Origin: a virus
Taxonomy: Duplodnaviria; Caudoviricetes
DNA length: 64,000 bases
Virus record (IMG/VR): IMGVR_UViG_3300027804_000001
Span: 256,001 to 320,000 of that record
Reading direction: 5' to 3' (one strand)
Positions 8,855-27,693 of the stretch are shown one piece after another. The translations under genes were made by a program, and so were the position numbers. Positions within the stretch are counted from its first letter, which is position 1; the number at the start of each line of letters is the position of its first letter. The notes beneath the pieces were generated by a model. That model did not search any database, was not told the DNA's origin, and saw only the letters and a list, made by a program, of their open reading frames with translations.

Positions 8855-8885
8855 AGTTAGAAATAATATAACCAAAAATTTTTGC

Positions 8886-8998: not shown

Positions 8999-9616
8999 TC
9001 AGTTGCCGGATTTTTCTGATTTAATCATATTGATGTATCCAATCACTGCGGTTGCCGCATCCGCCATATCGTAATTCTCTTTTTTAAGGTTACCAGTTTT
9101 ACCATATAACCAATTTACATCAGAACAAACGGCGTTAACATGTTCCCATATTACGTGTTTCTTATCGATATCTTTTGGATAACCACCAAACAATACGTTT
9201 CTATTTTTATCGTTCTTTCCGACTAAATCAGGAAACGCAAATTTTCTTGCATTATAAGTTGAAATGAAGGTTGGTATAATACCTAAAATATCATAACAAT
9301 TTTTCAAAATCAAAGTGTTATATCTTAATAGGGTTCCCACTGTATAAATGTTATTAGATTGTAATAATGGTTCTTCTATTATTACACGAGTAATCCCCAT
9401 ATCTTTATAACCCTCAAGATGTTTCTTGAACGCATCAGCCTTTTTTATTAATTCCTCTATTTTGTCTTCAGGCTGAGGTTTTATTTTTGGTGAGAAATGA
9501 GTTAACTCTAATAATTTGGATCCTGTTATATCAAACAGTGCCCACCCAATTGTTTTGGTTGAAATATCCAATCCCAAAATTTTTGGCTTGTTCTTAAATT
9601 TAATATCTATACTCAT
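8999..9616 (-). CDS. ruvC: RuvC-like Holliday junction resolvase
   Basis: ILGLDIS, VIIEEP, DMADA catalytic acidic motifs. Confidence 0.85.
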   Translation of the reverse strand: MSIDIKFKNKPKILGLDISTKTIGWALFDITGSKLLELTHFSPKIKPQPEDKIEELIKKADAFKKHLEGYKDMGITRVIIEEPLLQSNNIYTVGTLLRYNTLILKNCYDILGIIPTFISTYNARKFAFPDLVGKNDKNRNVLFGGYPKDIDKKHVIWEHVNAVCSDVNWLYGKTGNLKKENYDMADAATAVIGYINMIKSEKSGN

Positions 9617-9654
9617 ATCAAAATATATAAGTAATATTTTTTGATAAGTAAATA

Positions 9655-11832
9655 TTAAAAATCTAATCTAATAGAAAAAACTTGTGTACCACTTCTTTTT
9701 ACGGGAACCGCTGTTTTGGTTTTAACTAACACATCTTTATTTGAGTCCAATAAAGCAATTTCTGTAATGTATTTGTTACCTGAAGTATATGATGGGTTTT
9801 GTGTTTCAGTAAATTGTGTTGCGGGTAAGTTTACTAAGAAGTTCATTTCTTCAACATCACTTGCTCTTACTAATCTAACACTACCAGGGAATGGTTGTTC
9901 GTCACCAAATTGTGCCTCAGTTGTTGCACCTGTGGTTAACAAATAATCATTACCCATAAAACTTTCTAAATCAAATAAACTTGCACTTGTAATATCGGAT
10001 TTAGTAATTGTAAATGTGGTTCCGGTTAAATTTGCTGCGGTTAAATAAGATGTTCCGTTTCCACCTGCTTGTGTTGTATAATCAATAATCTTCCACAATT
10101 CAGGATTAGGTAAACCGTCTAAATCTTGTGTGGTTTCTTGTATTAAAACATAAAAACGTTTTGGTTTGAATTGTGTTAAGAAACCATCTGCAGTCAAATA
10201 GTTAAATGTATTACCACTAAATTTAACATTTATATTAGAAGGATATGTAACCGTTTGATATTTTGTATCACCCGTATTATTAACTGATAACTTTACATAA
10301 TAGTTACTTGGCAACGTATTAAGTGGTGATGTTGTTCCGTTTGTTTCTGACAACATGTACGTCACATAAAATGTTTGACCTGTTGTTCCTGATATGATTG
10401 AATTTGATACCACATCATTGCTTGGAACCGCGGTAACTTTCGGTGCACCTAAAGTAAATTTTCTATTACTTCTATAATCTAAAATTGCAACAAGTTCTTG
10501 GTCATCAAAAACTACAATTTTATTTTTAGGAAATACTTTACCAACTTTATTACCTGATTCATCAATCAAATATCTAAATAACAATTCATGTCTTTCACTT
10601 TTGGTTGATTTCACATAATAATCAGTTGTGTCCATATAGAAAATGGCACCATATGTTGTACCTGTGTTTCTATGATAATAAATAAATGGAATATAAACCT
10701 CAAAATATTGAGTATCACTTATCCCTTCATCATCTCTATCGTATGCTATTGAGATATCATCACCGGTTGTTCCTGTTTTATAACTGATGTAATCATCATA
10801 CTTATAAAATCTTTCAGGGTCGTTAATTAAATCACCTAATTCTGAATAATGTATTATTGCAACACATCTTTGTTCTTTTGGTGATACTTCAATTAATTCG
10901 TTAAATGAGTTTAAAAATCCTGTACCAATTTTTGTTGAACTAAAACTACCGATTGTTCCGCCTGTTAAGTTTTCGAATGTCTGTCCTGTTGATGTATACC
11001 CTAAAAATTCTTTTGTTGAAACGAATCTATTACTTGTGTATCCAGATAAACTTTCATCTAATGCTCCAACATCTGCACCAATTGGTTTTTTGTCCCATAC
11101 CGTATTCAATGTCCAAGCATTTTGTTGGTCCATTGGGTCAATCGGATTTGGTATACATGAACCGTTAACTTCGTTTGGATATTCTAATTCACAATTATTA
11201 CAAATTACTTGTATGTTTCCAGACAAAGCACTAAAATTCGGTGTCTTTCTATCTAAATTAATTGTGTTTCCTGATATACTTTCAATTCTATAAATTAAAC
11301 TACTTGAATTTCCAGTAACTGTTGGGGGGATACCACAAAATTCATCAAACACAATTGTTATAAATTCACAATTATTAAAACTGTCACCAGTTAAAACTTG
11401 TATTGAGGTTCCTCCTGTTAATGATGTTACACTAATTGATTGTGTTTCACATTGTATTGTTGTAGATTTAATACCAGGGTCCCCTGTACAATCCTCAAAT
11501 TCGTTGTACTCTGAAATGAATCCAGCAGGACCCATTACATTTCTAATTGTATCAGTTGAAGATTGTTCTATTGGTGTGCCATATGTGGTTCCACTTGTCG
11601 ACGCATCTATTTTGTATGGATATTTTATACCAGTTTCTTTATCAAATGGAGCTAATACTTTTTGATGAGTTGTCTGACCAGTTAATGATGAATAAATGGA
11701 ATTATAGTCAAATTCAGAATCTCCAATTTGAAAATACTCAATATTGAAATTACCTTTAGCAATAGAGTTTCTACCCTTTTGGGTTATTCTTGCTGATAAA
11801 AATTCCGAATTGTTACTATCTAAAAAACTCAT
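9655..11832 (-). CDS. Tail/baseplate structural protein, tail-collar-fibre-like termini
   Basis: N-terminal ITQKGR..IA.G...FQIGDSE and C-terminal ITEIALLD....LV.....P..R resemble collar-fibre proteins. Confidence 0.55.
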   Translation of the reverse strand: MSFLDSNNSEFLSARITQKGRNSIAKGNFNIEYFQIGDSEFDYNSIYSSLTGQTTHQKVLAPFDKETGIKYPYKIDASTSGTTYGTPIEQSSTDTIRNVMGPAGFISEYNEFEDCTGDPGIKSTTIQCETQSISVTSLTGGTSIQVLTGDSFNNCEFITIVFDEFCGIPPTVTGNSSSLIYRIESISGNTINLDRKTPNFSALSGNIQVICNNCELEYPNEVNGSCIPNPIDPMDQQNAWTLNTVWDKKPIGADVGALDESLSGYTSNRFVSTKEFLGYTSTGQTFENLTGGTIGSFSSTKIGTGFLNSFNELIEVSPKEQRCVAIIHYSELGDLINDPERFYKYDDYISYKTGTTGDDISIAYDRDDEGISDTQYFEVYIPFIYYHRNTGTTYGAIFYMDTTDYYVKSTKSERHELLFRYLIDESGNKVGKVFPKNKIVVFDDQELVAILDYRSNRKFTLGAPKVTAVPSNDVVSNSIISGTTGQTFYVTYMLSETNGTTSPLNTLPSNYYVKLSVNNTGDTKYQTVTYPSNINVKFSGNTFNYLTADGFLTQFKPKRFYVLIQETTQDLDGLPNPELWKIIDYTTQAGGNGTSYLTAANLTGTTFTITKSDITSASLFDLESFMGNDYLLTTGATTEAQFGDEQPFPGSVRLVRASDVEEMNFLVNLPATQFTETQNPSYTSGNKYITEIALLDSNKDVLVKTKTAVPVKRSGTQVFSIRLDF

Positions 11833-11855
11833 ATATTTTTAATAATTTAAACTGA

Positions 11856-13145
11856 TTAAGCACTACCTCCTCCTCCAGAACAATTAGTAATATATTGAAC
11901 GTCATCAACACCGCCGAAATCATTTACAAGTATTGCGTAATATGGTGGATTATTTGTATTAAATGTATTATCGGATGAAACGGCGTAATATTGATCACCT
12001 CCCTGCCATACCGTATATTCGGTATCAATATAAACCGTTGTATTTAACATATTTGAAATCGTACTAGAGGTACTATAGAATTGTGCACTTGTTACCTGAT
12101 TCTGATTACAATGACCATTACTTAAAGCCGCAGGATTAGATCGGAAAAATCCATATAAAGGTGGTGTTGGTGTTTGTGTCATCGTTGGCGTTATGGTTGG
12201 TGTTGGTGTTATTGCATTACATTGAACTACGTTATTAATATAACCTGTAGGTCCAATTGTCATTGCATATTTTGTACTGTTAGCCAATACCGCATAATAT
12301 GTTCCGTCTCCAACAAATGTTGTTACACAAAGATTTGAATCGTATGCATAATCACCATTTGCAGGTATTGTATGACCACTTAAATAAAGAGTTACACTAT
12401 TTGTTGCAATTTCAGATTCATACATTGCACAAGGTGCTGCTGTTCCACCAAATGTTGATCCGGTGTGTACTAACATTGAAATTCCTGGTGTTGGTGGCGG
12501 TGGTGGTGGAACAATTACATAATCTTCACATGTACCTGTTACTATTGTACCATCTAGTTTATTAGAACAATCACCTGTTCCTGGATCATTTGCAACATCA
12601 TTAGTATTCCAATAACTTCCCATTGTGTAATAATTTCCACCTGAAGACCAGAATATTTTTCCAACATTTGCCGCTCCACCCTCAATAGGTACGGAATAAC
12701 ATATAGTTGCATCATCACATCTTAATAACTCATACCAATATTGGAAATTTGGTGTAATTGTTGGTGTGACTGTAGGTGTTGGTGTTGGATCTCCCGGTGT
12801 TAATGTTGGTGTTATTGTAAATGTTGGTGTTATTGTAAATGTTGGTGTAATAGTTGGTGTAATAGTGTTAGTTATAGTAGGGGTTGGGGTTGCACCTCCA
12901 CCACCTGTTATAGTGATACATTGAGTTGTTCCTGCACAACTTCCACCATCAACCTTAACAAATAATGAAACAACATTATCAGGAATTCCTGTTATTACTT
13001 TTGGAAATCCGGATACTGCTTGTGAGGTTACTAAACTTGAGCAACCACTACCACAAGACGCACCCGTACAACCAGATATTGATACGGTTTGACCTGTTAT
13101 ATCTGAACCAACTGTTCCTAAATCTACTGTAGCGTTAAATGCCAT
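11856..13145 (-). CDS. Modular fibre/adhesin protein with Thr-Pro linkers
   Basis: Cys-rich N domain, two TPT tracts, poly-Pro, two similar Y.D...T...G...YY modules. Confidence 0.7.
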   Translation of the reverse strand: MAFNATVDLGTVGSDITGQTVSISGCTGASCGSGCSSLVTSQAVSGFPKVITGIPDNVVSLFVKVDGGSCAGTTQCITITGGGGATPTPTITNTITPTITPTFTITPTFTITPTLTPGDPTPTPTVTPTITPNFQYWYELLRCDDATICYSVPIEGGAANVGKIFWSSGGNYYTMGSYWNTNDVANDPGTGDCSNKLDGTIVTGTCEDYVIVPPPPPPTPGISMLVHTGSTFGGTAAPCAMYESEIATNSVTLYLSGHTIPANGDYAYDSNLCVTTFVGDGTYYAVLANSTKYAMTIGPTGYINNVVQCNAITPTPTITPTMTQTPTPPLYGFFRSNPAALSNGHCNQNQVTSAQFYSTSSTISNMLNTTVYIDTEYTVWQGGDQYYAVSSDNTFNTNNPPYYAILVNDFGGVDDVQYITNCSGGGGSA

Positions 13146-13149
13146 ATTC

Positions 13150-13157
13150 TATAAATA
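13150..13157 (-). promoter_or_regulatory. TATTTATA motif
   Basis: 4 nt upstream of ATG 13145. Confidence 0.5.
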
Positions 13158-13175
13158 TTAATTCTTTTATTTTTA

Positions 13176-14078
13176 TTATACAGAACACATTAATAATGGT
13201 GATAATGGTACTTGAGAGTGTAATGCAACACTAGCTTCTGTTGGAGTTGGGTCCATTAGATATAATTCTTCTGAATTATAGTTAAATCCATTATCTATAA
13301 TTGGGCTTGTATAAATTTCACCTATTACAGATATTCCACAAATTCTAAATTGAAGTGTGTTTCCACTACCTCCTGTCCATCTACCTTTTATCGTGTAAGG
13401 ACAATTTGATACTAATATATCGATATATCCAGATTTTGCAGTTGAAGTTGTTAGTTCATCTAACAAATCACCCTCAACGCCTCCGTTACTTGTTACTAAC
13501 AATTGACCACCTGTTTTATTATTTGTTGACCAATATAATCTTACTGTTGGTTCTCCAGTTGGTGTTATGGTTGGAGTATATGTTGGTGTTATTGTAAATG
13601 TTGGAGTAATAGTTGGGGTTGGTGTTGGAGTCGTGTTAGTTTGTACCGCAGAACCACCACTAAAATTACAAATAGGTGTATGAGTTGGTGTAATCGTTGG
13701 TGTTGGTGTAAGATTTGAAATAGCAGAACCACCACTAAAATTACAAATAGGTGTGTAAGTTGGAGTAACTGTTGGAGTTGGGGTAAAACATTTGGTATAG
13801 AAATCTAATTCATGTATATAAATGTTTTCAATAATATAACTATTGGTTACCGTGTCCAATATTTTAAACCAATATTGTTTTCCGTATGGGTTTGGGTCTA
13901 CTTCTACATCAAAATCAATTGTGATTGAGGATGTTCCACCAGCAAAAACACTACCATATTGGGCACCCCAAGTTGGATTTTCTTGTTCAGATACCGAACC
14001 CGGTGTTCTACCGTTTTGATAGAATAATTTAAAATTATTTGGTGAAACTATATTTTTTATCTCAATTACTAGACCCAT
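13176..14078 (-). CDS. Modular fibre/adhesin protein with Thr-Pro stalk
   Basis: TPT tract with two PICNFSGGSA nodes between N and C domains. Confidence 0.7.
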   Translation of the reverse strand: MGLVIEIKNIVSPNNFKLFYQNGRTPGSVSEQENPTWGAQYGSVFAGGTSSITIDFDVEVDPNPYGKQYWFKILDTVTNSYIIENIYIHELDFYTKCFTPTPTVTPTYTPICNFSGGSAISNLTPTPTITPTHTPICNFSGGSAVQTNTTPTPTPTITPTFTITPTYTPTITPTGEPTVRLYWSTNNKTGGQLLVTSNGGVEGDLLDELTTSTAKSGYIDILVSNCPYTIKGRWTGGSGNTLQFRICGISVIGEIYTSPIIDNGFNYNSEELYLMDPTPTEASVALHSQVPLSPLLMCSV

Positions 14079-14116
14079 ACCTATATAAATACCAATAATA
14101 AAAATTTAAATAAAAA

Positions 14117-14136
14117 ACCCCTTTAAATAAAGGGGT
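14117..14136 (-). terminator. Intrinsic terminator
   Basis: ACCCCTTT-ATTT-AAAGGGGT stem followed by a T tract on the minus strand. Confidence 0.75.
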
Positions 14137-14164
14137 CTTTTAATAATTAAAAAATCTTTATTTG

Positions 14165-14704
14165 TTATGGAGCAAAACCACTATTAATTGTGATTGCTAC
14201 AGTATCAGGTGAAGTACTACCAATTGTTGTTGTATAAGTTGTTGCACTTCCAGATGAATTTGGACAAGTAGTTGTATTATCGGCGCCATTCATAACATAA
14301 CTTTGTGCTGTTGAGAAGGTTACTGTGTCCCCCTCCGTTAATCCTGTAATTGCACCTAAATCGGAACATATATTTTCATTAGTATTGTAGAAGTTGAAAT
14401 TTCCACCACCATTTATATTGTATATAAGCATTATTGAACCACCGTTAACATCTTTAGCAAAAACACTCAAGGCTATTGTTGGTTTAGTCCAAGGTTGTGA
14501 GGTGGTACATGTTCCTATACTTGCTACCGTCCCACCTGTTATGTTACTATTTGGAATTGTTACTTCATAACCCGCTTCTAATGTTGCTTTTGCAACACCA
14601 GATTCAATTAATGTTGTAATACCTCCGCTAGTTGTTCCCGAGATGTCAAAAGGTCCGGTATCTGATCCGGCCCCTGAAACTGTGAAAATTACGTTATATG
14701 CCAT
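14165..14704 (-). CDS. Short two-domain adhesin-like protein (no stalk)
   Basis: C domain is clearly paralogous to the C domain of 14769-16925. Confidence 0.7.
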   Translation of the reverse strand: MAYNVIFTVSGAGSDTGPFDISGTTSGGITTLIESGVAKATLEAGYEVTIPNSNITGGTVASIGTCTTSQPWTKPTIALSVFAKDVNGGSIMLIYNINGGGNFNFYNTNENICSDLGAITGLTEGDTVTFSTAQSYVMNGADNTTTCPNSSGSATTYTTTIGSTSPDTVAITINSGFAP

Positions 14705-14768
14705 TGTTTTTTATTTTTATCTTTTTATATAAATATATCATTATTCAAAACAAATCTGTAGTTTATTT

Positions 14769-16925
14769 TTATGGTATGGCACCCGTGTCAATTCCTAAAT
14801 AGACATAATCATTACCAGAACTTATTCCTATGGTATGTACATAATTAACATTTCCACTAGGTGCGGTACAATTAGAACTAGAACCCGTCATTGAATACCC
14901 AATGTTGGTACCGAATGTAACTTGGTCGGACTGACTTAAACCTGTTATTTGTCCATAATAATCACAATTTCCATTTAATGGTCCATTATAAAAAGTATTA
15001 TATGAACCACCATTTATTTGATAGGTTATTTCAATTGAGTTGTATGAATTATCATAATCCTGTGCATTTACATAAAGTGTAACATAATTTGCAACACTTA
15101 CTATTTCTGTTACACCACTATTTGTAACACAACCATTCGCATCTGTTACCTCAACACAATATCCACCCGCACATAGAGTACCTACTGATTGTGTTGCTGT
15201 TGATTCAGTTACTCCTGTTATTGTTGTCACCAACGTGCCTCCACATGTTGTATATGGTGCTGTTGAGTCGAGATATAATTTATAAGTTTTTGGCCATACA
15301 CCACCAGTTGAACTCATATCAAGAGTACCATTACAACCACCTGTATCATTTGCTGTAATCGTAATTGAAGCTGATTGTGCACTTGGTTGAGTTATTGTAA
15401 CAGAAATTCCTTTTACTGCACCATTACTAGCTTTAACATTAAGGGTATAACCTGTTGCAATTAAACTACTAAATGTCTTAGGTAATGCAAAATAATTTAC
15501 ACCATCCAACGATACCGTATAAGCTCCACCTGAACCACCTGATGCACTATTAACTGTTAATGAACCGTCTGAACCACCATTACATGATACATTTGTTTGT
15601 GTATAACTAGCACTAATCTCAGTATAAGTTGGTGTCACCGTTGGTGTGAACGTCGGTGTTATTGTAAACGTCGGCGTTATTGTTGGTGTAATTGTATAAG
15701 TAGGTGTTATAGTTGGTGTAAACGTAGGCGTTATTGTTGGTGTAATAGTAAACGTAGGTGTAATAGTTGGTGTAATAGTTCTAGTTGGTGTAATGGTAAA
15801 TGTTGGCGTTATTGTAAACGTCGGTGTTATTGTAAACGTAGGTGTTATAGTTGGTGTAATTGTTTTAGTTGGAGTAATAGTTGGGGTAGGAGTTGGTGCA
15901 ACATAAGTTGTACTTACTGTGAAGTTACAAGCCGGTGTTGGTGTTGGTGTAATAGTAAATGTTGGTGTAATTGTTGGTGTAACAGTTCTAGTTGGTGTTA
16001 ATGTAAACGTTGGTGTAATTGTATAAGTCGGAGTTATAGTTGGTGTAATAGTTGGTGTAAATGTAGGTGTGATAGTTGGTGTTATAGTTTGACTTACTGT
16101 TTGAGTAGGTGTAATAGTATAAGTTGGTGTAATAGTATAAGTTGGTGTAATAGTCTGACTTACAGTTTGTGTAGGTGTAATAGTATAAGTTGGTGTAATA
16201 GTTGGAGTAGGTGTAGGTGCCACATAAGCAGTGCTCACTGTGAAATCACAATCCGGAGTTAACGTTGGTGTAACTGTATAAGTTGGAGTAATAGTTGGTG
16301 TTATAGTATAAGTTGGTGTAATAGTAAATGTCGGTGTGATAGTAAACGTTGGGGTTACTGTTACTGTTGGAGTGATTGTAAGTGTAGGTGTAATAGTTGG
16401 TGATAACGTTTGTGTTGGTGTAATAGTATAAGTTGGTGTTATGGTATATGTAGGAGTAACTGTCGGTGTAGGTGTTGGTGCAACATAAGTTGCATTAACA
16501 ACAAAGTCACAAGCCGGAGTTAACGTTGGTGTTATTGTATATGTTGGTGTTAAAGTTTGTGTGAACGTCGGTGTTATTGTAAACGTCGGCGTTATTGTAT
16601 AAGTCGGTGTTATTGTTGTTGTAGGTGTAATTGTGTATGTTGGTGTAACTGTTAACGTTGGTGTTAAAGTTGGTGTTGGGGTTGGTGCGTAGAATGTCTC
16701 ATTAGTAAAACATGATTCATTGTAAAGAATCACATTTACTGTACTATCAGGTACATAAACATCAACACCCGGATTTGTTGTTAAGTCGTTATAAGTAATT
16801 CCTGTTGCATTATCATTTGTACTAACTCTTGTGGCATAATTAGATGGATTTACATCATCATAGTAAACCGAATATGGTCCTGGTGATGTTCCTCCTGTTA
16901 TTAATATGTGAAAATATCTTGCCAT
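14769..16925 (-). CDS. Long fibre/adhesin: N domain, ~355-aa Thr-Pro stalk, SprB-like repeats, head domain
   Basis: (TxTxTP)n; [14 protein letters not shown]...YTVSLDG...ITQP and VEVTDANGC SprB-type signatures. Confidence 0.8.
15621..16685 (-). repeat. Coding Thr/Pro tandem repeat ([16 protein letters not shown]) with 3 Cys nodes
   Basis: 12/18-nt degenerate tandem units in frame. Confidence 0.95.
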
Positions 16926-16937
16926 TTATATTAATTA

Positions 16938-19900
16938 TTATACCGTATTAAAACCTAATTCAACTTGATAGTAAGAATTCACATGATATAACGCATCATT
17001 TGTTGTAAACTCAATTCTCAATGTATGTACAGAGTTCGCCGCTAATAAGTATGGTGACGGTACTGTAAATGTTTTTATCACAGGTCCCATTGCACATCCC
17101 TGATTTAAATCTTGTGATGTTGCTCTGGCGATTTCTGTTCCATTTAATTTAAATTTAATGTTCTCAAAATTAGTATCTTGTAACTCCGCAAGACCACTAA
17201 AGTCTAAAGACATATTCGTATTTTGTGGTCCAACTGTTATAGTTGCTTCCGCCCAACCAATTTGTGTTTGATTACAAGTTCCATTAGGACAATTTGACGA
17301 ATTCGAAACATTAAATCTAACTGTTTGATTCAAGTTTGAAATTGCCCATCCAGCATTAATTCTATTTTGTGCTGAAACTGTTGGGTCAACATATAAACAT
17401 TGTGAAAAACCTGTAACATTAGTATATGTCGTCCATGTTAATCCTGAAACAGGTAGTGGTGTTGGTGTTATTGTCATTGTTGGTGTAATAGTTGGTGTTG
17501 TTGTAACTGAAGGTACATACTCACTAAATGATGCCGCAAATGAACAATCAATTGTTGGAGTAATTGTTAATGTCGGTGTAATAGTTGGTGATACTGTTAC
17601 TGTTGGTGTAATAGTAAATGTTGGTGTTATTGTAAACGTTGGTGTAATTGTAGGAGTAGGAGTAGGTGCTACGTATGTCGTACTAACCGTGAAATCACAA
17701 GCCGGAGTTAATGTTGGAGTAATTGTATAAGTTGGGGTAATAGTTGGTGAAACTGTTACTGTTGGCGTAATAGTATATGTTGGAGTAATTGTTAATGTCG
17801 GTGTGATTGTTAAAGTTGGTGTAATCGTCTGACTTACAGTTTGTGTAGGTGTAATAGTAAATGTTGGTGTAATTGTATAGGTTGGTGTAATAGTCGGTGT
17901 AATTGTATAAGTCGGAGTTATTGTATACGTTGGAGTTACGGTTGGTGTTGGGGTTGGTGCAACATAGGTTGTATCAACATTGAAATCACACGCTGGTGTC
18001 AATGTAGGTGTAATTGTATAAGTTGGTGTAATAGTTGGTGTAACCGTTAATGTTGGTGTAATTGTTTGAGTTGGTGTAATAGTAAATGTTGGCGTTATTG
18101 TTAACGTCGGAGTAATAGTTGGTGATAATGTTTGTGTAGGTGTTATTGTATACGTTGGAGTAATTGTATAAGTCGGAGTTATAGTTGGTGTAATAGTAAA
18201 CGTAGGTGTAATAGTATAAGTTGGAGTAACTGTCGGTGTAGGTGTTGGTGCTACATATGTAGTAGTAACCGTAAATTCACAAGCCGGTGTTAGAGTTGGT
18301 GTAACTGTAAATGTTGGGGTTATAGTTGGTGTAACAGTTAATGTAGGTGTAATTGTATAAGTTGGGGTAATAGTTGGTGTTGGTGTTATGGGTAAAATAA
18401 CAACATTAACACAATCACATTGTGGTGTAACTGAATTTACAGTAAATCCGCTAACACATTCACCAGGTAATAAACCCGCACCTATATTAAATCCGTGTGT
18501 ATGGTCGTTGTATGCAATTGTTTCTGTTCCATTAAATACGGTACCCAAGTCACCATACGCAGTACCCGAAACAATATAATCACAAATTGCATTTGCATTA
18601 TCTGTTAAATCAGGATTATTGAATAATTGGATGTCAAAGTTTGAACATCCTAATAATCTAACTCTTAAGTATTGTGTTACAAATGGATCACATGTTTGTG
18701 TTGGTGTGATTGTATAAGTTGGGGTTACTGTAAACGTTGGTGTAACGGTTTGTGTTGGTGTAATTGTATATGTTGGAGTTACAGTTGGAGTAGGAGTTGG
18801 TGCAACATAGGTTGTGTCAACATTAAAATCACAAGCCGGTGTAAAAGTTGGTGTAATAGTCGGCGTAATTGTGAATGTTGGCGTTATAGTATAAGTTGGT
18901 GTTATAGTATAAGTTGGTGTTATAGTTGGTGTAATAGTATAAGTTGGTGTTATAGTATAAGTTGGAGTTACTGTTTCTGTTGGTGTAATAGTAAACGTTG
19001 GCGTTATTGTTAACGTCGGAGTAATAGTGGGAGTTATACTTTGAGTTGGGGTAGGTGTAGGTGCAACATAAGTTGTACTAACTATAAATTGACAATCTGG
19101 TGTCAATGTTGGTGTGATAGTATAAGTTGGTGTTATAGTTGGTGTAAATGTTGGTGTTATTGTAAATGTAGGTGTAACAGTTTGTGTTGGTGTTATTGTT
19201 AACGTCGGAGTTAAAGTTGGGGTAATTGTATGAGTAGGTGTGACTGTTGGGGTAGGTGTTGGTGCAACATAAGTTGCATTAACAACAAAGTCACAAGCCG
19301 GAGTTAACGTTGGTGTTATTGTATATGTTGGTGTTAAAGTTTGTGTTATAGTAGGTGTTATTGTATAAGTTGGTGTAATAGTAAATGTTGGAGTAATGGT
19401 AAATGTAGGTGTTACTGTTGGTGTTGGTGTGGCCGCAACATAAGTTGTATCAACAATAAACTCACAATCAGGAGTTAACGTAGGTGTTATTGTATATGTT
19501 GGTGTTAAAGTTTGTGTGTAAGTTGGTGTAATTGTTGGTGTAACAGTGAATGTTGGTGTGATAGTTGGTGTAATAGTAAACGTAGGTGTTGGAGTTGGTG
19601 TCGGTGTCTCAGGACAATAAATTAATTTCCAACAATTTCCATCACATGGTGCGTATTCATATCCACTTGGGCAAGTATAACCAGATGAAAGATAATTACC
19701 ATTTATATCTTTAATAACAGGAATTGTTTGACCAATAAAATCTGAAGATGAGAATATTACATTTAAATCATTTATTGATGTTGCACCAGTTAATTGAGGT
19801 AATGTGTTATCATAAATTTCACAACCAAATGACGCAGGGTTTGTTTGATTACCTGTTAAATTATATCCATATAAACCAATAATGTGATCACCTGCCGTTA

Positions 19901-22900
19901 ATGTTATTGGGTAAACGTGCCATGTTCTAAATTTCGATAATTCATTAAGACCTGAATTAGCAAACGTATCTAAAATAACATTACCATCAATCTCCAATCT
20001 AAATTCATTATCAGCACCAATACCGATATAGTAATCACCACCTGTTATACCTGTGATACAAACATTAAATCCTAACCAAGTTTGTAATGGATTATCCACG
20101 TTGTCATTTACACCATCATTTGCCCACAAACCTGTTCTATTTAATGGTCCATTACCGGGGTTGAATATATTATAACCAGTTGTATTTTTCCATAAATCTG
20201 CGGTGTTTAGATGTATCTCTTCTGTCCCTGTTCCGTTTATATTCCAACCTAATTGATAAACAGTTGTTCCACTCATACTATATTCAAAGTATGTTCTTCC
20301 ACTTGCGGTGTAAGGTGTTGTTGGTGCGGTCGCGGAAACAATATCAATTGCCGTACAATAACCTCCATCTATTGGTGTCCATGTATATCCTGAAGGACAA
20401 TCCACACAAGGAATTGCTGTAGGTGTAATAGTATTTGTTGGTGTTATCGTTAACGTTGGTGTTACTGTTTCTGTTGGTGTAATTGTATAAGTCGGTGTAA
20501 TAGTTTGAGTATACGTCGGAGTAATAGTTGGTGTTATCGTTAACGTTGGTGTTATAGTTTGTGTTAGTGTAAACGTCGGCGTTATTGTAAACGTCGGTGT
20601 AATAGTTGTTGTTGGTGTTATTGTATATGTTGGTGTAACAGTTAACGTAGGAGTTACTGTTGGAGTAATTGTAGGAGTTGGTGTTGGTGTTGGGTATGCA
20701 GAATTACAATCTCGATAAGGAGTTATTTCACAATCAACATAACCAGTTGTGTCTCTTTCACTTGATGTTTGTGTGATATCTTGACACAATCCACCATCAT
20801 AATATTGAATAATATATTCATCTAATGTTTTGAACTCGTCATAAACATGTTGTAATAATATTTGGTGATTTGAGTTACCATTAAATGCAATTAAATTTGT
20901 TGGTGTTGTTCCCGATAAATTTAAATTAAAATATAAATCAGATTCACAATACTCTAAATTAACTGAAATAACTTCAATAAGTCTACCACTTTCAGTGATT
21001 AAATAATCACCATGTTCATAATAATCATTTGAATAATCACAACATGGTTCCTCTTGTATTGGTTTTATTTGTAAATGTTCAGGAAATCTTTCAGTAAAGA
21101 AAAATCTTTTTAAATCTATTACTTCATCTGTAGACTCGTCAACATACTTTCTCGTGTAAACTTTAACTTTTGTTGTTTGTAAAATTTCAAACACCTCAAC
21201 ATCTCCATCCTTAGTTGTACCTGTTATGTGATATTTTTTAATTGTTCCCAAACAATCTTTTGCGGTTACTTTTTTGGGTGTGTAATCAAAAACAAATGTG
21301 AAATCATCATTTGTTAAACCATCTACTAATGATTGATTTGATAATTCACTACAATCATTAAATGTTGCCGAAAGAATTGTATCACCTGAAACAATATCTT
21401 TTACATATGTTTTAGTATAACTTGTTAATGTTGTTTGACTACCACCTGTATATTTTAAAACATACGAATTACCACCCAATCCATAATTGAAAGAATTTCT
21501 ATATTGGATTTTAGGTACTAATTTGTAAAGAACTTCATCATCAACCGGTGATGGTGTTAAACCACTATAACCAATCCATTGAATGTTTATACCTTCAAAT
21601 TTTACTTTGGTGTCGCAGTTGGCTGCGTCGGTAAATAAGAAATCAATTTCATCTGTTTCTTTAACATTCGACACCACCCAAACACATTCGTATCCACCAG
21701 GAATATCCATAGTAGAACCATGAACCGTATAACCTGTTGTTTCATTTACACCATATTCACAATTTCTATATACAAATAACGGCCAATTCTTAACTCTATT
21801 TTTCTGAATTATATTGTTAGTATCTCCCGTGATTTTTATTTTTAAATCACCATTTAAAATACATTCAGGTCCATTAGGATAATTTATATCATCACCTGCA
21901 AATAGTCTATTTGGGTCTTCGTCGTCATCCGGGCAATCAAAAGAAAAATCAAGTTCTAATGTACAATCAGCAGGTGTTGTTGCACCGTTTGAAGCAACAA
22001 ATCTGTAATCAAGATATTCTTCAACAGAACAATCATTTGGTCCGTACTTTATAGATGTGAATGTAACTTGTTCGATACCATTTTCATCTGTAAAAAATGA
22101 ATAGGATATTTTTGGTTTTGGAACTTGGGTACATGTACTGCTACTTGTTGCTGCTGTATATGGTGCATATGTATCAATACAACCCGGAGTGTTCATTGTG
22201 TCTTCCGAATTGATTGAATCGATTAAACCAATTAACGCATCAACCCATAAATCTTTAATTGCATTAACATCAGGTTCCAAATAATCTTTATAATCACATA
22301 TTAATGGTAAATGTGTTGATGAGGATGTCGTTCCTGTACAATTATCAATTGGAAATGAGTTAAATAATTTTGCGCTTACTCCTGGTATTGATGTGTTGCC
22401 ACTCACAATAACTTCAAATCCTGATTCAGGCCCACCATATTGAATACCATCAATTTCTATTAATGGATAATAAGTAACGCCAGTTGCATTAATTAAACCT
22501 CTAAAATAATTTTCATGATGACTACCTAATAATTTTTCAAAATCTTCTTCGATTGCCTCTTCAAAACTTGGATAAAGGCTTTCTGTAAAAGTCTTTGGTT
22601 GACAACCGTATCTATATTTGTATTTTGGTCTACCGAAAATATTATTTTCAATTAAATTACCACCAGTCCATAACGTTGTTGATGGTATAACTTGATCTAA
22701 TACTTGAGTCCAATATGGACTCATCTTATTGATAAATTCGTTTAAATCCGGTATAGTATATGGTACAAAATCAGTTGAACTTACATAATCTTGATAAATG
22801 TCTTCAAGTTTTATGTAATTCTTTTTGTATTTGATAATGTGTGAGTTTTTAATTTGTGTACTCAACATTTTATCAACATATTCCGCAAATGTAACACCTG

Positions 22901-24923
22901 TTTGTGGTTCTAATGTTGCACTACCAAATGATATCTCTAACTCTCTTGACTTTCTCCATATATCATAGTTGATAGCATTTGCAGAAGAAAGATACACTTC
23001 AATATTTTTTCTATTGAATATAAATGAAGAATATTCGTCAGCTATTTGTCTTTGTCTGTTATCTAATTTACTAACAATTTCGTAACCAGTGTCTAAACCG
23101 GGTAAACTTCTATAGATATCAAAATAATCTTCACCATAAGTAAAAGATTTATTTTTTGTTTTAATTGTTTTGGTTCTTCCCGTTAAATTAGACTTATCAC
23201 CATCAATTATGTCTATTGATCTGTGATCTAATGTTATATCATACCAACCCGCACCTTTTTGGAAAAACGTGTTAGATGATTCGTCAAACGCCGTTTTTGG
23301 TATTTTAGTACCTTCAACAATTGGGTACGTTTCGGATGTGAAAGTTGTTGATGCCTTAGTTGAAGATATTGAATAGGTATAACCACTCGGAATAAATTCT
23401 GCAACATTGTATGTTTTTGTTCCTGCAATAACATCATAGATATCACTATCTAAATCAAATGATTTTGGTAATGAGGTTATTTGATAAACAAATTCATTAA
23501 TTTTAATCATTGGTTCAGGTGCACCTAAGAACTTTAAGAAAAATTCTATTGATGAACGTGTACCTTTTGATTTATATATGTGAGATAGATTAACTAATAA
23601 TCTTCTATAAAATTCGTTTTCTGCGTCAACAACGTTTTTACCAATTGTTAGACCGATATATTGTGTGTCTTGTCTTGTGTATAATAAATCTTCTAATTTA
23701 TTTTCATCAAATAAATTTACAGTAGATAAACCTAAGGTGTTTGATAAATTTTTTAATAATATATCGGGTAAGTTATTAATACCATCATAACTTACATTTC
23801 TCATGTAAGCAATGTTTTCAATATATTTTTTTACTTTATCGAAACTATGTCCATATAATTGGAAAATCGCTTCAGCCTTCTTGTCATCAGTATCAAACTC
23901 AAATAACTGTGGAGAAGACATAAATCTAACAAATAAATTAGATTTATAATCATCTATTTCGTCAGCCAAATTTGATAATTGTTCGATATATAAATCATAA
24001 TCAATACCAACAATTTTAACGTTCCAATTATCTTTTGAAAGTGGCCATGTTACTTCAACATCACTAAGTACTGTGTTTGAACTATCTATACTATCTTTTG
24101 GTACACTAAATGTTGCGGTGTATTTTGGATTTGTATCTCTATCAATTAAACATTGTTCTAATTCATCTAAATTAGAAAAGAAGTCTTCAACCAAACCATT
24201 ATTTGGTCTTATTAATATGTTCTCACTATAATTTGTGTTAGTTCCAAATGGTTTACCCTTAACCTTTAATACGATTTTATAATCGGTACTAGGTTCGGTA
24301 TAATTTATAATGTCATAAGTGATACCACTTATTTCTATAACATACTTTGTATATGAAGAATAAAAATTTCTTAATGTGTTTGTGGTGTTTGGGTCGACTT
24401 GACTATTTGGTGTTACAAATATTACATCGAGTGGATTGTATAATCTACCAAAGTCAACCTCGAATTGTGTGGTGTTTAAATTAATGTCATAAACAACATT
24501 ATCTACAGTATAATCTGATGACCTTACTGAACTGTTTTTATCAATTAAAACACCAGCCGGAAACTTTTCAATTATATTTCCTAATGTTGCACCAATTCTA
24601 CTTTTTAATGAACCAAATAATGATTTACCCGCATCATTTTTTGATGACCTAAATTTTACCTCTTTATTTTCATTTGAAGTACCATTTGGGTTATTTTGGT
24701 CATTTGACTTATATTTTTCTTCTTTTAAATCGTCTAAGGTTAGAAAATCAGAAAATTGTCCAGAACGAAATGTTTTCACATCTCTTTCAGGGATAGATCT
24801 GTCAATAGCGAAGTTAGTATTAGTCAATTGACTAGTACCATCGGTAATTTGTCTACCGACTAAACTATCACTAAACGTTTCAGACCCATTCGCCGCCTGA
24901 CTTGGAACTTTTCTTCTTGCCAT
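16938..24923 (-). CDS. Giant 2661-aa baseplate-wedge/fibre fusion protein
   Basis: N region with LLKNLSNTLG and YKSKGTRSSIEFFLKFLG (gpI/gp7-like wedge); degenerate Hint; Thr-Pro stalks; lectin-like inserts; C-terminal beta domain. Confidence 0.75.
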   Translation of the reverse strand: MARRKVPSQAANGSETFSDSLVGRQITDGTSQLTNTNFAIDRSIPERDVKTFRSGQFSDFLTLDDLKEEKYKSNDQNNPNGTSNENKEVKFRSSKNDAGKSLFGSLKSRIGATLGNIIEKFPAGVLIDKNSSVRSSDYTVDNVVYDINLNTTQFEVDFGRLYNPLDVIFVTPNSQVDPNTTNTLRNFYSSYTKYVIEISGITYDIINYTEPSTDYKIVLKVKGKPFGTNTNYSENILIRPNNGLVEDFFSNLDELEQCLIDRDTNPKYTATFSVPKDSIDSSNTVLSDVEVTWPLSKDNWNVKIVGIDYDLYIEQLSNLADEIDDYKSNLFVRFMSSPQLFEFDTDDKKAEAIFQLYGHSFDKVKKYIENIAYMRNVSYDGINNLPDILLKNLSNTLGLSTVNLFDENKLEDLLYTRQDTQYIGLTIGKNVVDAENEFYRRLLVNLSHIYKSKGTRSSIEFFLKFLGAPEPMIKINEFVYQITSLPKSFDLDSDIYDVIAGTKTYNVAEFIPSGYTYSISSTKASTTFTSETYPIVEGTKIPKTAFDESSNTFFQKGAGWYDITLDHRSIDIIDGDKSNLTGRTKTIKTKNKSFTYGEDYFDIYRSLPGLDTGYEIVSKLDNRQRQIADEYSSFIFNRKNIEVYLSSANAINYDIWRKSRELEISFGSATLEPQTGVTFAEYVDKMLSTQIKNSHIIKYKKNYIKLEDIYQDYVSSTDFVPYTIPDLNEFINKMSPYWTQVLDQVIPSTTLWTGGNLIENNIFGRPKYKYRYGCQPKTFTESLYPSFEEAIEEDFEKLLGSHHENYFRGLINATGVTYYPLIEIDGIQYGGPESGFEVIVSGNTSIPGVSAKLFNSFPIDNCTGTTSSSTHLPLICDYKDYLEPDVNAIKDLWVDALIGLIDSINSEDTMNTPGCIDTYAPYTAATSSSTCTQVPKPKISYSFFTDENGIEQVTFTSIKYGPNDCSVEEYLDYRFVASNGATTPADCTLELDFSFDCPDDDEDPNRLFAGDDINYPNGPECILNGDLKIKITGDTNNIIQKNRVKNWPLFVYRNCEYGVNETTGYTVHGSTMDIPGGYECVWVVSNVKETDEIDFLFTDAANCDTKVKFEGINIQWIGYSGLTPSPVDDEVLYKLVPKIQYRNSFNYGLGGNSYVLKYTGGSQTTLTSYTKTYVKDIVSGDTILSATFNDCSELSNQSLVDGLTNDDFTFVFDYTPKKVTAKDCLGTIKKYHITGTTKDGDVEVFEILQTTKVKVYTRKYVDESTDEVIDLKRFFFTERFPEHLQIKPIQEEPCCDYSNDYYEHGDYLITESGRLIEVISVNLEYCESDLYFNLNLSGTTPTNLIAFNGNSNHQILLQHVYDEFKTLDEYIIQYYDGGLCQDITQTSSERDTTGYVDCEITPYRDCNSAYPTPTPTPTITPTVTPTLTVTPTYTITPTTTITPTFTITPTFTLTQTITPTLTITPTITPTYTQTITPTYTITPTETVTPTLTITPTNTITPTAIPCVDCPSGYTWTPIDGGYCTAIDIVSATAPTTPYTASGRTYFEYSMSGTTVYQLGWNINGTGTEEIHLNTADLWKNTTGYNIFNPGNGPLNRTGLWANDGVNDNVDNPLQTWLGFNVCITGITGGDYYIGIGADNEFRLEIDGNVILDTFANSGLNELSKFRTWHVYPITLTAGDHIIGLYGYNLTGNQTNPASFGCEIYDNTLPQLTGATSINDLNVIFSSSDFIGQTIPVIKDINGNYLSSGYTCPSGYEYAPCDGNCWKLIYCPETPTPTPTPTFTITPTITPTFTVTPTITPTYTQTLTPTYTITPTLTPDCEFIVDTTYVAATPTPTVTPTFTITPTFTITPTYTITPTITQTLTPTYTITPTLTPACDFVVNATYVAPTPTPTVTPTHTITPTLTPTLTITPTQTVTPTFTITPTFTPTITPTYTITPTLTPDCQFIVSTTYVAPTPTPTQSITPTITPTLTITPTFTITPTETVTPTYTITPTYTITPTITPTYTITPTYTITPTFTITPTITPTFTPACDFNVDTTYVAPTPTPTVTPTYTITPTQTVTPTFTVTPTYTITPTQTCDPFVTQYLRVRLLGCSNFDIQLFNNPDLTDNANAICDYIVSGTAYGDLGTVFNGTETIAYNDHTHGFNIGAGLLPGECVSGFTVNSVTPQCDCVNVVILPITPTPTITPTYTITPTLTVTPTITPTFTVTPTLTPACEFTVTTTYVAPTPTPTVTPTYTITPTFTITPTITPTYTITPTYTITPTQTLSPTITPTLTITPTFTITPTQTITPTLTVTPTITPTYTITPTLTPACDFNVDTTYVAPTPTPTVTPTYTITPTYTITPTITPTYTITPTFTITPTQTVSQTITPTLTITPTLTITPTYTITPTVTVSPTITPTYTITPTLTPACDFTVSTTYVAPTPTPTITPTFTITPTFTITPTVTVSPTITPTLTITPTIDCSFAASFSEYVPSVTTTPTITPTMTITPTPLPVSGLTWTTYTNVTGFSQCLYVDPTVSAQNRINAGWAISNLNQTVRFNVSNSSNCPNGTCNQTQIGWAEATITVGPQNTNMSLDFSGLAELQDTNFENIKFKLNGTEIARATSQDLNQGCAMGPVIKTFTVPSPYLLAANSVHTLRIEFTTNDALYHVNSYYQVELGFNTV
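17457..20693 (-). repeat. Coding Thr/Pro tandem repeats with 7 CxFxVxxxYVxxTP nodes, interrupted by two globular domains
   Basis: Inserted domains at about 18390-18695 and 19620-20415. Confidence 0.95.
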
Positions 24924-25840
24924 TATTGGGTAATATCATCGAAATTTAGTGTCTCGTCAATATCAGTTTTTTCTTCCCTAACTTCATAAAGGGTTTCGTT
25001 AAACTCATCCTTAACTTCGTATAGGTTGTATTGTTTGTAGATACTGTTATTGTTGTTATTATCGTAAATGGTGTAGATACCAGAAGAAACTGCTTTAGTT
25101 TGGTTACCATAAAGTGCGTGTGCCAATGTAGACGCATCATGTTCAACCATTTCAATTTCTATGGTAGTAGGATTAAAAAATGTATTTGTTAATATAATAT
25201 TTTGAGCGGGTTGACCTATAAAAGGTACAACATTTGGTCTACTACCCGGTGCAGAAGATGGTGTAACAGTCAAAAACATTAAGTTTGTTGCACTGTTACT
25301 ATATTGATATCTTATTGCTTTTTGTGTTGTACTCGTTAAGTTTGAAACAACGGGAGTACAATAAAATGATGACGTAACAATTCTATAAAAATTTGTAAGT
25401 TTTGTTCCATCATTATTCAAATATTCAATTCTATAACCTATTAAACCTTGTGGTGTAAATTTACCTCTATCATCATCAGAAACGTTTGATAAATCAATTA
25501 CCAAACCTCTTACAGAGGGTAAAGAAGCCAAAATACCACAATCCGTGATTGAGGTTCTTATTTGTTTTGGTCTGATGTGAAGTGTATACACTCCTAAATC
25601 AGAAAAATCAGTAGAACTTAGTTTTAAATTATAAAGACCACCCAAAATTTCTGTACCTGTTTGGGCGTTTGTATCTGTATCAGAATTATGATATATTGGT
25701 GTTAAAATTTCCTGAGATGATAACTTCGTTAAAGTTACCTCCGCGGTTGACAACCTATTTGGTGCATAATGAAGAAATATATCCACATCTGCTGGAGACA
25801 CATCTGCTGGTCTTATTGTTCCGTAACTACCTACTGCCAT
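24923..25840 (-). CDS. Hypothetical structural protein
   Basis: Full-length ORF in the baseplate block preceded by TATTTATTA (25851-25859). Confidence 0.6.
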   Translation of the reverse strand: MAVGSYGTIRPADVSPADVDIFLHYAPNRLSTAEVTLTKLSSQEILTPIYHNSDTDTNAQTGTEILGGLYNLKLSSTDFSDLGVYTLHIRPKQIRTSITDCGILASLPSVRGLVIDLSNVSDDDRGKFTPQGLIGYRIEYLNNDGTKLTNFYRIVTSSFYCTPVVSNLTSTTQKAIRYQYSNSATNLMFLTVTPSSAPGSRPNVVPFIGQPAQNIILTNTFFNPTTIEIEMVEHDASTLAHALYGNQTKAVSSGIYTIYDNNNNNSIYKQYNLYEVKDEFNETLYEVREEKTDIDETLNFDDITQ

Positions 25841-25865
25841 ATCTTTTTATTAATAAATATAATTT

Positions 25866-26843
25866 TTATTGTTTCCTAACGTTAAAATATCCATTTCCAT
25901 ACACAGATAATTCTCCCATGTTATCGATTTCTCCTAATCTTAATGTTTTTTCCAAAACCCCTTGTTTTCCTCTCTCCACAAAAATGTCAGAATAAATTGT
26001 TGGGTCTTCAACAAAACCCAAAAAATGTTCATTTCTGGTTATCATTTCATTTATGATTTCCTCTTTAGTAAATCCTGTGGTGTTTCCTGTAATAAGAGTT
26101 GTTCCATCCTCATAATCTCTATAATAAACTGTGGTCGTTCCTGTTGTATTTCCCGTATATGTGAAACTATATCCCGTATAATTTCCAACATCATCTGTAC
26201 CCGATGTTGTACCTGAATAAGATGTTGATCCATATTTTCTTTTCTCTTCTATTCTACTACCACCAATACCCAAATAATTAAACGTTGTGTTTCCTGTTGG
26301 GGGATTAAATTCCTCATCAGATAAATAATTTTGTGTTCTACCACTTTCTAAATAATATTCTGTTGGTGTTATGTTATAATATGGTAAACTTGTACCTGTA
26401 TATACGAATATACCCAATGGGTCGGCTACCGAAATATCTTTTGGTATTGTTACTTGTTTACTTAATTTTTGTGTGGCCCAAGGAGCATCTAAAGTAATTG
26501 ATATTGTATACCCACTTGATGTTGAGTATGTATGAGATATTGTTGGAAAGTTTGTTCCAACTACTCCACTATTAACAGTTAAACCTGATATGTTTCCATC
26601 CCCCCAATTAATTGTAAATGTTTGTTCAACTATTTTTCTTAGTTTATCGGGATTAACAGTATTATATACTTGTATTGTACTTCCTGTTTGTGTATACGAA
26701 AAATTACATAGTTGTTCCACTTGTTCAATGTCACCATCAAACCCCACCATAACACCCATTTCATCAACCAAAGATTCTAAAAATATTGGTAGACTGTAAG
26801 TTGTACCTGTTTGTTTTAATATTTCGTATCTATTCTTATTCAT
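25866..26843 (-). CDS. Structural protein with PKD-like Ig domain
   Basis: FTINWGDG...TISHTYSTSSGYTISITL matches the PKD WDFGDG...H.Y...G.Y.V.L pattern. Confidence 0.6.
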   Translation of the reverse strand: MNKNRYEILKQTGTTYSLPIFLESLVDEMGVMVGFDGDIEQVEQLCNFSYTQTGSTIQVYNTVNPDKLRKIVEQTFTINWGDGNISGLTVNSGVVGTNFPTISHTYSTSSGYTISITLDAPWATQKLSKQVTIPKDISVADPLGIFVYTGTSLPYYNITPTEYYLESGRTQNYLSDEEFNPPTGNTTFNYLGIGGSRIEEKRKYGSTSYSGTTSGTDDVGNYTGYSFTYTGNTTGTTTVYYRDYEDGTTLITGNTTGFTKEEIINEMITRNEHFLGFVEDPTIYSDIFVERGKQGVLEKTLRLGEIDNMGELSVYGNGYFNVRKQ

Positions 26844-26850
26844 TTATAAA

Positions 26851-27693
26851 TTACTTTGTTGCCGTTCCGTCATTAAAATTGCAATCACTACAACCAATCT
26901 GATAAACATAACCGTATTCTGTATCTTCTTTATTGATTTGAACACAGTAATACATATCATCACTCTCATTCACTTCATTTCCACCTGTTATACCTTTTTG
27001 AAAAAACAAAATAGGATTCATAGATGTGCCGATTCTTTGAGATGGGTCTGTTCCTGATAGTGTTATCATGTTTTTATTTGTAAAATCCACAATAGACCCA
27101 TCTTCCGCATTAAAAAATTTTGCGGTCATATAAAAAGTATTTCCTTTTAGTAACTCTTCACTAAAAACGGAATCATCTGCAAACCAAAACAAATACATGT
27201 TTTCTTTATTTCTGTAATTTGAACCCATAAAAACAGGTTTAAAAATGTAATCATTTAATGTTGTATAAAAATATTTTTCACCTAATGGTAATGCTAAGTT
27301 TTTAGTAAAAACTAGTTTTCTATTAGATCTACTGGGTTCATCGTTGTTTGGTGTTTTGTAAAACTCAAGTCTAAAAAAACTTTCAGTAGTTTGTCTTAAC
27401 ATTTGTGCGTTTTCGTTAGCACTTAAACCAGTTGGTTCATAGTCTTGAACATATGTTGAACCGCTGATGAAATGAAATTTAAACCATATATCTGATTGTA
27501 ATAAACCTAGATTAGATGTGTAGGGTTTGTGAATATATCTTATTGTTTCATAATTTTGAGTGGGATTAATTATAGTTTTTAATGTTTCCTTTTCCATTTC
27601 CTCAGCATTATCCTGCCATCCAAGGTCAGTTTTGAAAACATCCTCAACATTTAAAATTATTTTTTGGTCAATATCTTTTCTTAATATTTTCAT
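26851..27693 (-). CDS. Hypothetical structural protein
   Basis: ATG 27693 overlaps the upstream stop (TAATG coupling). Confidence 0.6.
   Translation of the reverse strand: MKILRKDIDQKIILNVEDVFKTDLGWQDNAEEMEKETLKTIINPTQNYETIRYIHKPYTSNLGLLQSDIWFKFHFISGSTYVQDYEPTGLSANENAQMLRQTTESFFRLEFYKTPNNDEPSRSNRKLVFTKNLALPLGEKYFYTTLNDYIFKPVFMGSNYRNKENMYLFWFADDSVFSEELLKGNTFYMTAKFFNAEDGSIVDFTNKNMITLSGTDPSQRIGTSMNPILFFQKGITGGNEVNESDDMYYCVQINKEDTEYGYVYQIGCSDCNFNDGTATK

Follow-up and report, generated by a model that had tools for sequence, protein, structure and literature searches.

We analysed a window of 64,000 nt, positions 256,001 to 320,000 of the IMG/VR record IMGVR_UViG_3300027804_000001 (Caudoviricetes), and describe here a locus of five adjacent genes at 11856-24923 of this window, which encode proteins with Thr/Pro-rich stalks of very different length. 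With about 31% G+C the window is AT-rich, and nearly all of its genes are encoded on the minus strand. The five open reading frames (ORFs) are at 11856-13145 (429 aa), 13176-14078 (300 aa), 14165-14704 (179 aa), 14769-16925 (718 aa) and 16938-24923 (2661 aa). All of them, together with every feature of the locus given below, are on the minus strand. The first-pass annotation, made from the sequence letters, had reported five adjacent genes of 179 to 2661 aa, and this is correct. None of the five proteins was matched as a whole by Pfam; PHROG matched only families of unknown function, and none of its tail-fibre families.

PHROG and Pfam scans identified the window as part of a T4-like myovirus. 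Recognised genes encode a prohead protease, SbcC/SbcD-like nucleases, a primase, RuvC, a helicase, ribonucleotide reductase, a UvsX-like recombinase, a single-strand binding protein, a 950-aa tail sheath and a T4_baseplate-family protein. The five genes lie directly downstream of baseplate genes. This upstream block (24923-35692, minus strand) contains a gp25-like wedge protein (35192-35692) and a gp6-like wedge protein (33358-35190), each belonging to a PHROG baseplate wedge family, followed by proteins of 1290, 585, 282, 325 and 305 aa. Counted from the gp6-like gene, the 2661-aa gene comes five genes further downstream, and its start overlaps with the stop of the preceding 305-aa gene. The 282-aa protein of the block had no match with gp9 in BLASTP.

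Thr/Pro stalks and Cys nodes

The tripeptide TPT has 10 copies in the 429-aa protein, 11 in the 300-aa, 55 in the 718-aa and 103 in the 2661-aa protein. It is absent from the 179-aa protein, and all other ORFs of the window have 0-2 copies each. The stalks show strict T-x-T-x alternation, with lag-2 autocorrelation of about 0.8. Their unit is TPT[YFIL]T[IVP] (TPTxTI), with Pro residues mostly 6 or 4 residues apart. Thr and Pro make up 43% and 19% of the stalks (478 Thr and 205 Pro in 1099 residues). By a Thr/Pro window scan the stalk residues amount to about 95 in the 429-aa protein, about 77 in the 300-aa protein, about 357 in the 718-aa protein and about 707 in the 2661-aa protein, while the 179-aa protein has two short Thr-rich patches only and no stalk. 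Stalks ranging from zero to hundreds of residues, as first proposed, are thus present in the locus. The term "mucin-like", also used in the first-pass annotation, is a description of composition only.

The stalks of the two largest proteins are interrupted by nodes with a single Cys, P-x-C-x-F-x-V...YVAPTPTPT, three in the 718-aa protein and seven in the 2661-aa protein. In relatives the node reads [ND]-C-D-F-D-V-D-V-D-V-V-x-PTPTP, which has the pattern of an amphipathic strand, acidic on one face and with one Cys. The motif recurs in distant homologues of the 2661-aa protein, whose N-terminal parts are 40-77% identical. The distances from node to node in the 718-aa and 2661-aa proteins (15900-19500) are 57, 67, 87, 97, 97, 87 and 107 residues, all 7 mod 10. 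A quantised spacing as a rule of the family was rejected, as relatives show only a bias to odd lengths (103 odd against 45 even); the 7-mod-10 spacing probably is a local 10-residue (6+4) super-repeat or local duplication pattern.

At the DNA level the repeat units of the stalks are only 60-75% identical with scrambled codons, and exact repeats inside the 2661-aa gene reach at most 35 nt. It follows that the repeats are old and that selection acts on the peptide. The G-C skew of the window flips to between +0.37 and +0.42 at 16001-20000, against a negative background. Because this coincides with the stalk DNA, it probably reflects the abundance of minus-strand Thr (ACN) and Pro (CCN) codons there and is not a replication signal.

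Anchor, N-domains and heads

Each of the proteins has a conserved N-terminal part, which is either a 1400-aa anchor or an N-domain of about 75 aa, then a spacer where present, and then variable C-terminal domains. The 2661-aa protein starts with the anchor (residues 1-1405, 20709-24923), the conserved core of a family known from metagenomes only. It is followed by stalk 1 (residues 1406-1506, 20406-20708), globular domain A (residues 1507-1766, 19626-20405), stalk 2 with four Cys nodes (residues 1767-2080, 18684-19625), a small globular domain B (residues 2081-2174, 18402-18683), stalk 3 with three Cys nodes (residues 2175-2493, 17445-18401) and a terminal head (residues 2494-2661, 16941-17444). 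The three stalks were delimited by the window scan, and Tandem Repeats Finder detected a 291-nt higher-order repeat in stalk 3. Domain B is a non-stalk stretch between stalks with no Pfam family, and the terminal head had no Pfam match above threshold. A protein atlas gave weak carbohydrate-binding-module leads for this head (scores up to 0.89, sub-threshold), a sub-threshold PA14 lead for domain A (score 0.87) and nothing for the anchor. Assignment of domain A to PA14 (PF07691) was rejected, because the match over residues 1490-1740 had 13.7 bits against a gathering cutoff of 24 (E 0.055).

More than 140 homologues of the anchor were found, with 40-77% identity and total lengths of 1478-2974 aa, and IMG/VR contains at least 541 anchor loci on contigs of up to 334 kb. 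The C-terminal parts of the homologues carry DUF285/BspA-type leucine-rich repeat (LRR), discoidin, SprB, cadherin or beta-propeller domains. Stalks of at least 30 Thr/Pro/Ser residues were present in 109 of 121 homologues, with totals from 0 to 840. In one subclade the anchors are bare (1412-1414 aa), which means that the anchor is a complete protein alone and the extension by stalk and head is optional. About half of the related viral contigs (loci L003-L082, IMG/VR) end inside the stalk of the anchor gene, showing that stalk repeats break short-read assemblies.

The first-pass annotation had described the largest protein as fused to a baseplate-wedge-like domain. We did not find such a relationship. 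Pfam, PHROG and PDB searches revealed no wedge homology, and comparison of the anchor profile with T4 gp10 and gp12 by hhalign gave E values of 0.3-0.6, which means no similarity. An AlphaFold2 (AF2) model of anchor residues 1-830 was poor, with predicted local distance difference test score (pLDDT) of 53.5; Foldseek returned no match for it and VIA only generic OB-like barrels (Z about 5). Homology thus does not place the 2661-aa protein in the wedge, while its gene does stand beside the wedge block, and it is gene position only that argues for a baseplate or fibre role of the anchor.

The 718-aa protein begins with N-domain type A (residues 1-73, 16707-16925), followed by a stalk with three Cys nodes (residues 74-438, 15612-16706; window scan), and by SprB repeats and a head (residues 439-718, 14772-15611). 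An exhaustive search for the type A N-domain yielded 188 clusters, of proteins of 44-1718 aa; in nearly all of them the domain stands at residue 1. Among the members of at least 150 aa, 100 of 115 have a stalk of 12-304 residues, which in 70 of them comes directly after the N-domain. The stalk of the 718-aa protein exceeds those of all 115 relatives surveyed. The C-terminal parts of type A proteins fall into about 48 BLASTP clusters, and Pfam identified SprB in 20 of 95 relatives, and also cadherin, fn3, VWA, Y_Y_Y and beta-propeller domains. AF2 predicted the type A N-domain as a confident beta-sandwich (pLDDT 86). This is the fold model that bears on the beta-rich structure suggested earlier for the heads; it concerns one N-domain, and heads are named here only where Pfam matches.

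The SprB match of the 718-aa protein (PF13573, residues about 441-474) passes the gathering threshold with 30.1 bits against a cutoff of 28. Two kinds of relatives were found for this part: phage-type proteins without secretion signals, and Bacteroidota surface proteins with sorting domains of the type IX secretion system (T9SS), for example from Spirosoma and Bacteroidia, with 32-38% identity. A link between the type A N-domain and the SprB repeats was rejected, as the internal hidden Markov model (HMM) matches disappear once the N-domain is removed.

The 179-aa protein (14165-14704) has a small N-domain and a head of the 718-aa family without any stalk. Its C-terminal part is 39% identical over 108 aa (E 6e-13) with the head of the 718-aa protein (residues 615-718), so that one head family is found both with and without stalk in the same locus. 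Its N-domain has a weak colinear match with type A (hhalign E 0.0018; HMM E 0.0013). One common family for all four small N-domains was rejected, because those of the 429-aa and 300-aa proteins are not significant against type A. The 300-aa protein (13176-14078) consists of an N-domain of its own, three short stalks that contain two ICNFSGGSA nodes, and a head at the C-terminus; its gene has a 75-nt repeat.

Comparison with homologues divided the 429-aa protein (11856-13145) into N-domain type B (residues 1-71), then a stalk, two modules in the middle and one at the C-terminus. Dozens of proteins that are unrelated in their remaining parts share the type B N-domain with 70-93% identity, and in all 43 members surveyed it runs directly into Thr/Pro/Ser-rich sequence. 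The middle (residues 133-311) and C-terminal (residues 330-429) modules are found independently in other combinations. With 188 type A clusters and dozens of type B proteins, the small Cys-containing N domains noticed at first are confirmed as small N-terminal domains. Directly downstream of the 429-aa gene, after a gap of 23 nt, lies a gene for a 725-aa Thr-rich (11.9%) protein (9655-11832, minus strand). It has no Pfam or PHROG match, is identical in the close strain L083 described below, and may be a further, stalk-less part of the module.

Variation between strains and relatives

Strain L083, a 150-kb contig from ENA, is 99.83% identical to the window over 12.3 kb (1856-14144). It lacks an 18-nt unit, one TITPTF hexapeptide, of the 429-aa stalk (12831-12848 of the window). 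The remaining differences in these 12.3 kb are three small changes in a strong terminator-like hairpin after the 179-aa gene (14111-14142; a 14-pair stem, then a T run), and the 300-aa gene is identical. The homology stops at about 14144, at this hairpin. In place of the 179-aa gene L083 carries an allele of 194 aa. Its architecture is the same; the two proteins are 41% identical, and the nucleotide sequences have no similarity. An invariant locus would have spoken against the original proposal; the locus is not invariant, as L083 differs by one stalk unit and by replacement of the 179-aa gene. Both kinds of variation, in stalk length and in head identity, are therefore seen between near-identical strains.

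Exchange between genes was also detected. A 95-nt tract of the 718-aa gene, which covers one Cys node (16468-16562), is identical to 19252-19346 of the 2661-aa gene. It is the longest exact match between the two genes and marks one recent gene-conversion event. Public contigs that matched the locus were short (0.4-1.3 kb), and those at the stalks included fragments of other genes. They contained in-frame indels of +18 nt at 15993, -6 nt at 17875 and +6 nt at 12709, each in a single contig.

The closest relative with a long contig is L001, whose anchor is 77% identical. Its baseplate genes (585, 282, 325 and 305 aa) are 64-86% identical to those of the window, and the synteny of the 2661-aa gene with the wedge block is kept. 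The fibre genes of L001 encode proteins of 266, 413, 1187, 73, 457 and 1718 aa and are not alignable to those of the window apart from the type A N-domain and the SprB repeats. Cadherin and SprB domains are present in the 1718-aa protein. The 1187-aa protein (L001 17210-20773, plus strand) has a long hydrophobic stretch at about 340-420, a weak DUF5977 match and no counterpart in the window.

The view that the heads are swappable and the locus modular agrees with these results: N-domains are joined with unrelated C-terminal parts, the anchor is bare or variably extended, and a cassette was replaced in L083. Comparison of sequences shows an exchange of these parts among genes, strains and phages.

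Even the nearest of the deposited phages, Flavobacterium phage vB_FspM_immuto and Microcystis phage Mel-JY01, are very distant, with 26-27% identity of the gp6-like protein. Immuto has annotated tail fibre and tail spike genes in the matching position downstream of the wedge genes, but the anchor and both N-domains are not in immuto or Mel-JY01, nor were they or the giant gene matched in any other deposited phage by nucleotide and protein searches. Sequencing runs of freshwater and riverine origin, from 16 studies, contain the phage. CheckV estimated completeness of 20-76% for related contigs of 66-234 kb, from which genomes near 300 kb are deduced; this suggests a lineage of uncultured freshwater jumbo phages.

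Proposed role of the locus

We consider it likely that the locus serves host recognition, as the receptor-binding fibre module of a T4-like jumbo myovirus from freshwater. The phage is uncultured, and its host probably belongs to Bacteroidota. The host is suggested by the SprB relatives in T9SS proteins, the low G+C content and the distant kinship to a Flavobacterium phage. As in phage fibres, an N-terminal part is conserved and a C-terminal part variable across relatives, and mosaic replacement is found between close strains. The recognisable heads are of adhesin type (SprB, cadherin, fn3, VWA, discoidin and BspA-type LRR). In such a module the anchor and the small N-domains would attach the proteins to the baseplate or to one another, and the T-x-T-x stalks would be extended spacers, which place the heads at different distances from the tail tip. 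The single-Cys nodes with their acidic face might keep the chains of a multimeric fibre in register, and the heads would bind glycans or proteins of the host surface. Host range could then evolve by recombination in the stalk DNA and at intergenic breakpoints, which would swap heads, and unit-sized indels would change the length of stalks.

Several points weigh against this fibre module. Pfam, PHROG, and PDB sequence and profile searches detected no homology between the anchor and known baseplate or fibre proteins. The fold of the type A N-domain matches only generic Ig/fn3-like folds (Z about 5), and no adaptor protein is known among its relatives. Of about 40 loci with a complete anchor gene, only 9 have N-domain genes after it, so a multi-gene array is not universal in the lineage. 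The five proteins are known here from their genes, and their place in the virion is putative; a host among Bacteroidota is likewise only probable. When three copies of a node-dense segment (P0007:1478-1610) were modelled as a homotrimer, the model did not fold the segment. The stalk DNA, being old and codon-scrambled, is not a fast slippage locus.

A bolder version of the fibre module, which we regard as rather doubtful, can also be proposed. The stalks would be segmented multimeric rods, with chains stapled to one another at the nodes by disulfide, metal or Ca2+ and Thr faces O-glycosylated by a phage enzyme. With such "beads-on-a-string" fibres of discrete length a single virion would reach receptors in several depths of the thick coat of glycans and gliding adhesins on Bacteroidota, and reach (by unit indels) and specificity (by head swaps) would evolve separately.

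It is also possible, although we think it unlikely, that the proteins are decoration or adherence fibres of the virion with no part in host entry, which hold the particle on mucus, algae, particles or biofilm and raise encounter rates but do not set the host range. Hoc-type Ig-like domains act in this way in the "bacteriophage adherence to mucus" model, and the type A N-domain is an Ig-like sandwich. The recognisable heads (SprB, cadherin, fn3, VWA, discoidin) are generic adhesin modules, and the giant protein has several binding-type domains in series, which would suit such fibres as well. However, the genes are in the baseplate and fibre position and not among head genes, and conserved N-terminal parts with cassette replacement in near-identical strains are the hallmark of genes that determine host range. 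One role does not exclude the other.

The homology of the SprB repeats to host-type T9SS surface proteins could also mean that the proteins are not part of the virion, and are made during infection to act at the host surface, where they would mimic or disturb SprB-type gliding adhesins or cause superinfection exclusion. This is quite improbable. No hydrophobic signal-like stretch was seen by eye at the five N-termini, no T9SS sorting domain was reported for the five proteins, and CHU_C, a T9SS signal domain, occurred in only 1 of 95 N-domain relatives. The 1400-aa N-terminal part is a lineage-wide core gene beside baseplate genes, and the promoter-like motif described below is the same as before the sheath and other genes of the structural region. 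Finally, repetitive DNA promotes recombination, the 95-nt tract is common to two genes and assemblies break in the stalks, yet it is very improbable that the stalks are neutral low-complexity expansions that lack a structural role, with modularity as a mere by-product of recombination between repeats, because a peptide pattern kept with scrambled codons indicates purifying selection on the protein, the Cys node is conserved across anchors of 40-77% identity, and stalks follow the N-domain, mostly directly, in 100 of 115 type A and 43 of 43 type B proteins.

The receptor-binding fibre module preferred here can be compared with known systems. In the textbook phage tail fibre a spacer joins a conserved end for attachment to a receptor-binding end that varies, as in T4 gp12 and gp34-37, the gp38 adhesins of T-even phages and side tail fibres. 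Our locus is similar to modular tail fibres in its position after the baseplate genes, the conserved N-terminus, the variable C-terminus and the mosaic exchange of distal parts. It differs from T4 fibres in having no sequence similarity to gp10 or gp12 and no PHROG tail-fibre family, and from usual fibres in its shaft, which is a Thr/Pro alternation with Cys nodes and not beta-helical or coiled-coil, and in the use of one spacer material by several fibres of different size.

Collagen-like (Gly-X-Y) spacers are known in tail fibres of phages and prophages, and their length varies between strains. They resemble the stalks as a simple repeat of variable length between a conserved N-terminal tag and unrelated heads, with unit-sized strain indels. 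A collagen triple helix is excluded here, because the repeat is T-x-T-x or TPTxTI with no Gly periodicity; in addition, the stalk repeat is interrupted by single-Cys acidic nodes, unlike collagen-like spacers. Pro/Thr-rich linkers of secreted glycoside hydrolases and mucin-like O-glycosylated stalks are extended spacers too. They share with our stalks the repetitive Thr/Pro-rich composition and the presumed role as spacer between globular domains, whereas the non-Thr positions here are bulky and hydrophobic, unlike those of disordered linkers, and phage proteins fold in the cytoplasm. SprB repeats link the 718-aa protein with SprB-type gliding adhesins and T9SS proteins, from which it differs by the phage-specific N-domain and stalk in front of the repeats.

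Nothing relevant to Thr/Pro stalks or SprB repeats in phage fibres was found in the literature searched. The claim of an "undescribed system" was overstated all the same, since modular phage tail fibres follow the same design logic. New, by the literature and libraries searched, are the T-x-T-x/TPTxTI stalk with single-Cys nodes, the 1400-aa anchor family, the two N-domain families and the lineage itself.

The locus marks the likely host-range apparatus of a large lineage of uncultured freshwater jumbo phages, whose fibre proteins current annotation does not recognise. In metagenomes, receptor-binding genes could be located and host-range evolution followed with the 1400-aa anchor, the two N-domain families and the Cys-node motif as markers. 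As stalk repeats break short-read assemblies, such loci are systematically cut short in viral catalogues. If the stalks are structured or glycosylated, they would be a new type of spacer beside collagen-like and coiled-coil fibre shafts.

Promoter-like motif and other genes of the window

Most genes of the locus were said to have their own TATTTAT motif. It is present before three of the five, at 13157, 14091 and 14735; the 718-aa and 2661-aa genes have none, and the motif is not enriched overall. The window has 30 sites against 54 +/- 8 expected, so that it is rarer than by chance. Of these, 24 are on the coding strand and about half of the 24 are at most 50 nt upstream of start codons; sites were found upstream of the sheath, 1573-aa, 626-aa and 305-aa genes, the primase gene and others. 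The small number of sites, the strand bias and the position before starts fit a promoter-like element avoided inside genes, and we regard TATTTAT as a candidate for such an element. Read as its reverse complement, TATTTATA gives the T4 late promoter TATAAATA.

A gene encoding a GT2-family glycosyltransferase (5545-6243, minus strand; Pfam 34.1 bits against a cutoff of 23.3) is kept in L083. It is located between the SbcD-like and SbcC-like genes, among recombination genes and 6 kb from the stalk locus. Its target may be DNA, the host envelope or a protein of the virion.

The tail sheath (59298-62150, minus strand) has 950 aa, of which only the C-terminal third (about 626-947) aligns with the Flavobacterium phage sheath. 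It therefore has a long extra N-terminal part relative to that protein. Two more giant ORFs of 1948 and 1573 aa (44721-50567 and 50877-55598, minus strand) lie between the replication genes and the sheath. They have no Pfam or PHROG match and no TPT stalks. Possibly they encode structural proteins that escaped recognition, for example a tape measure or hub.

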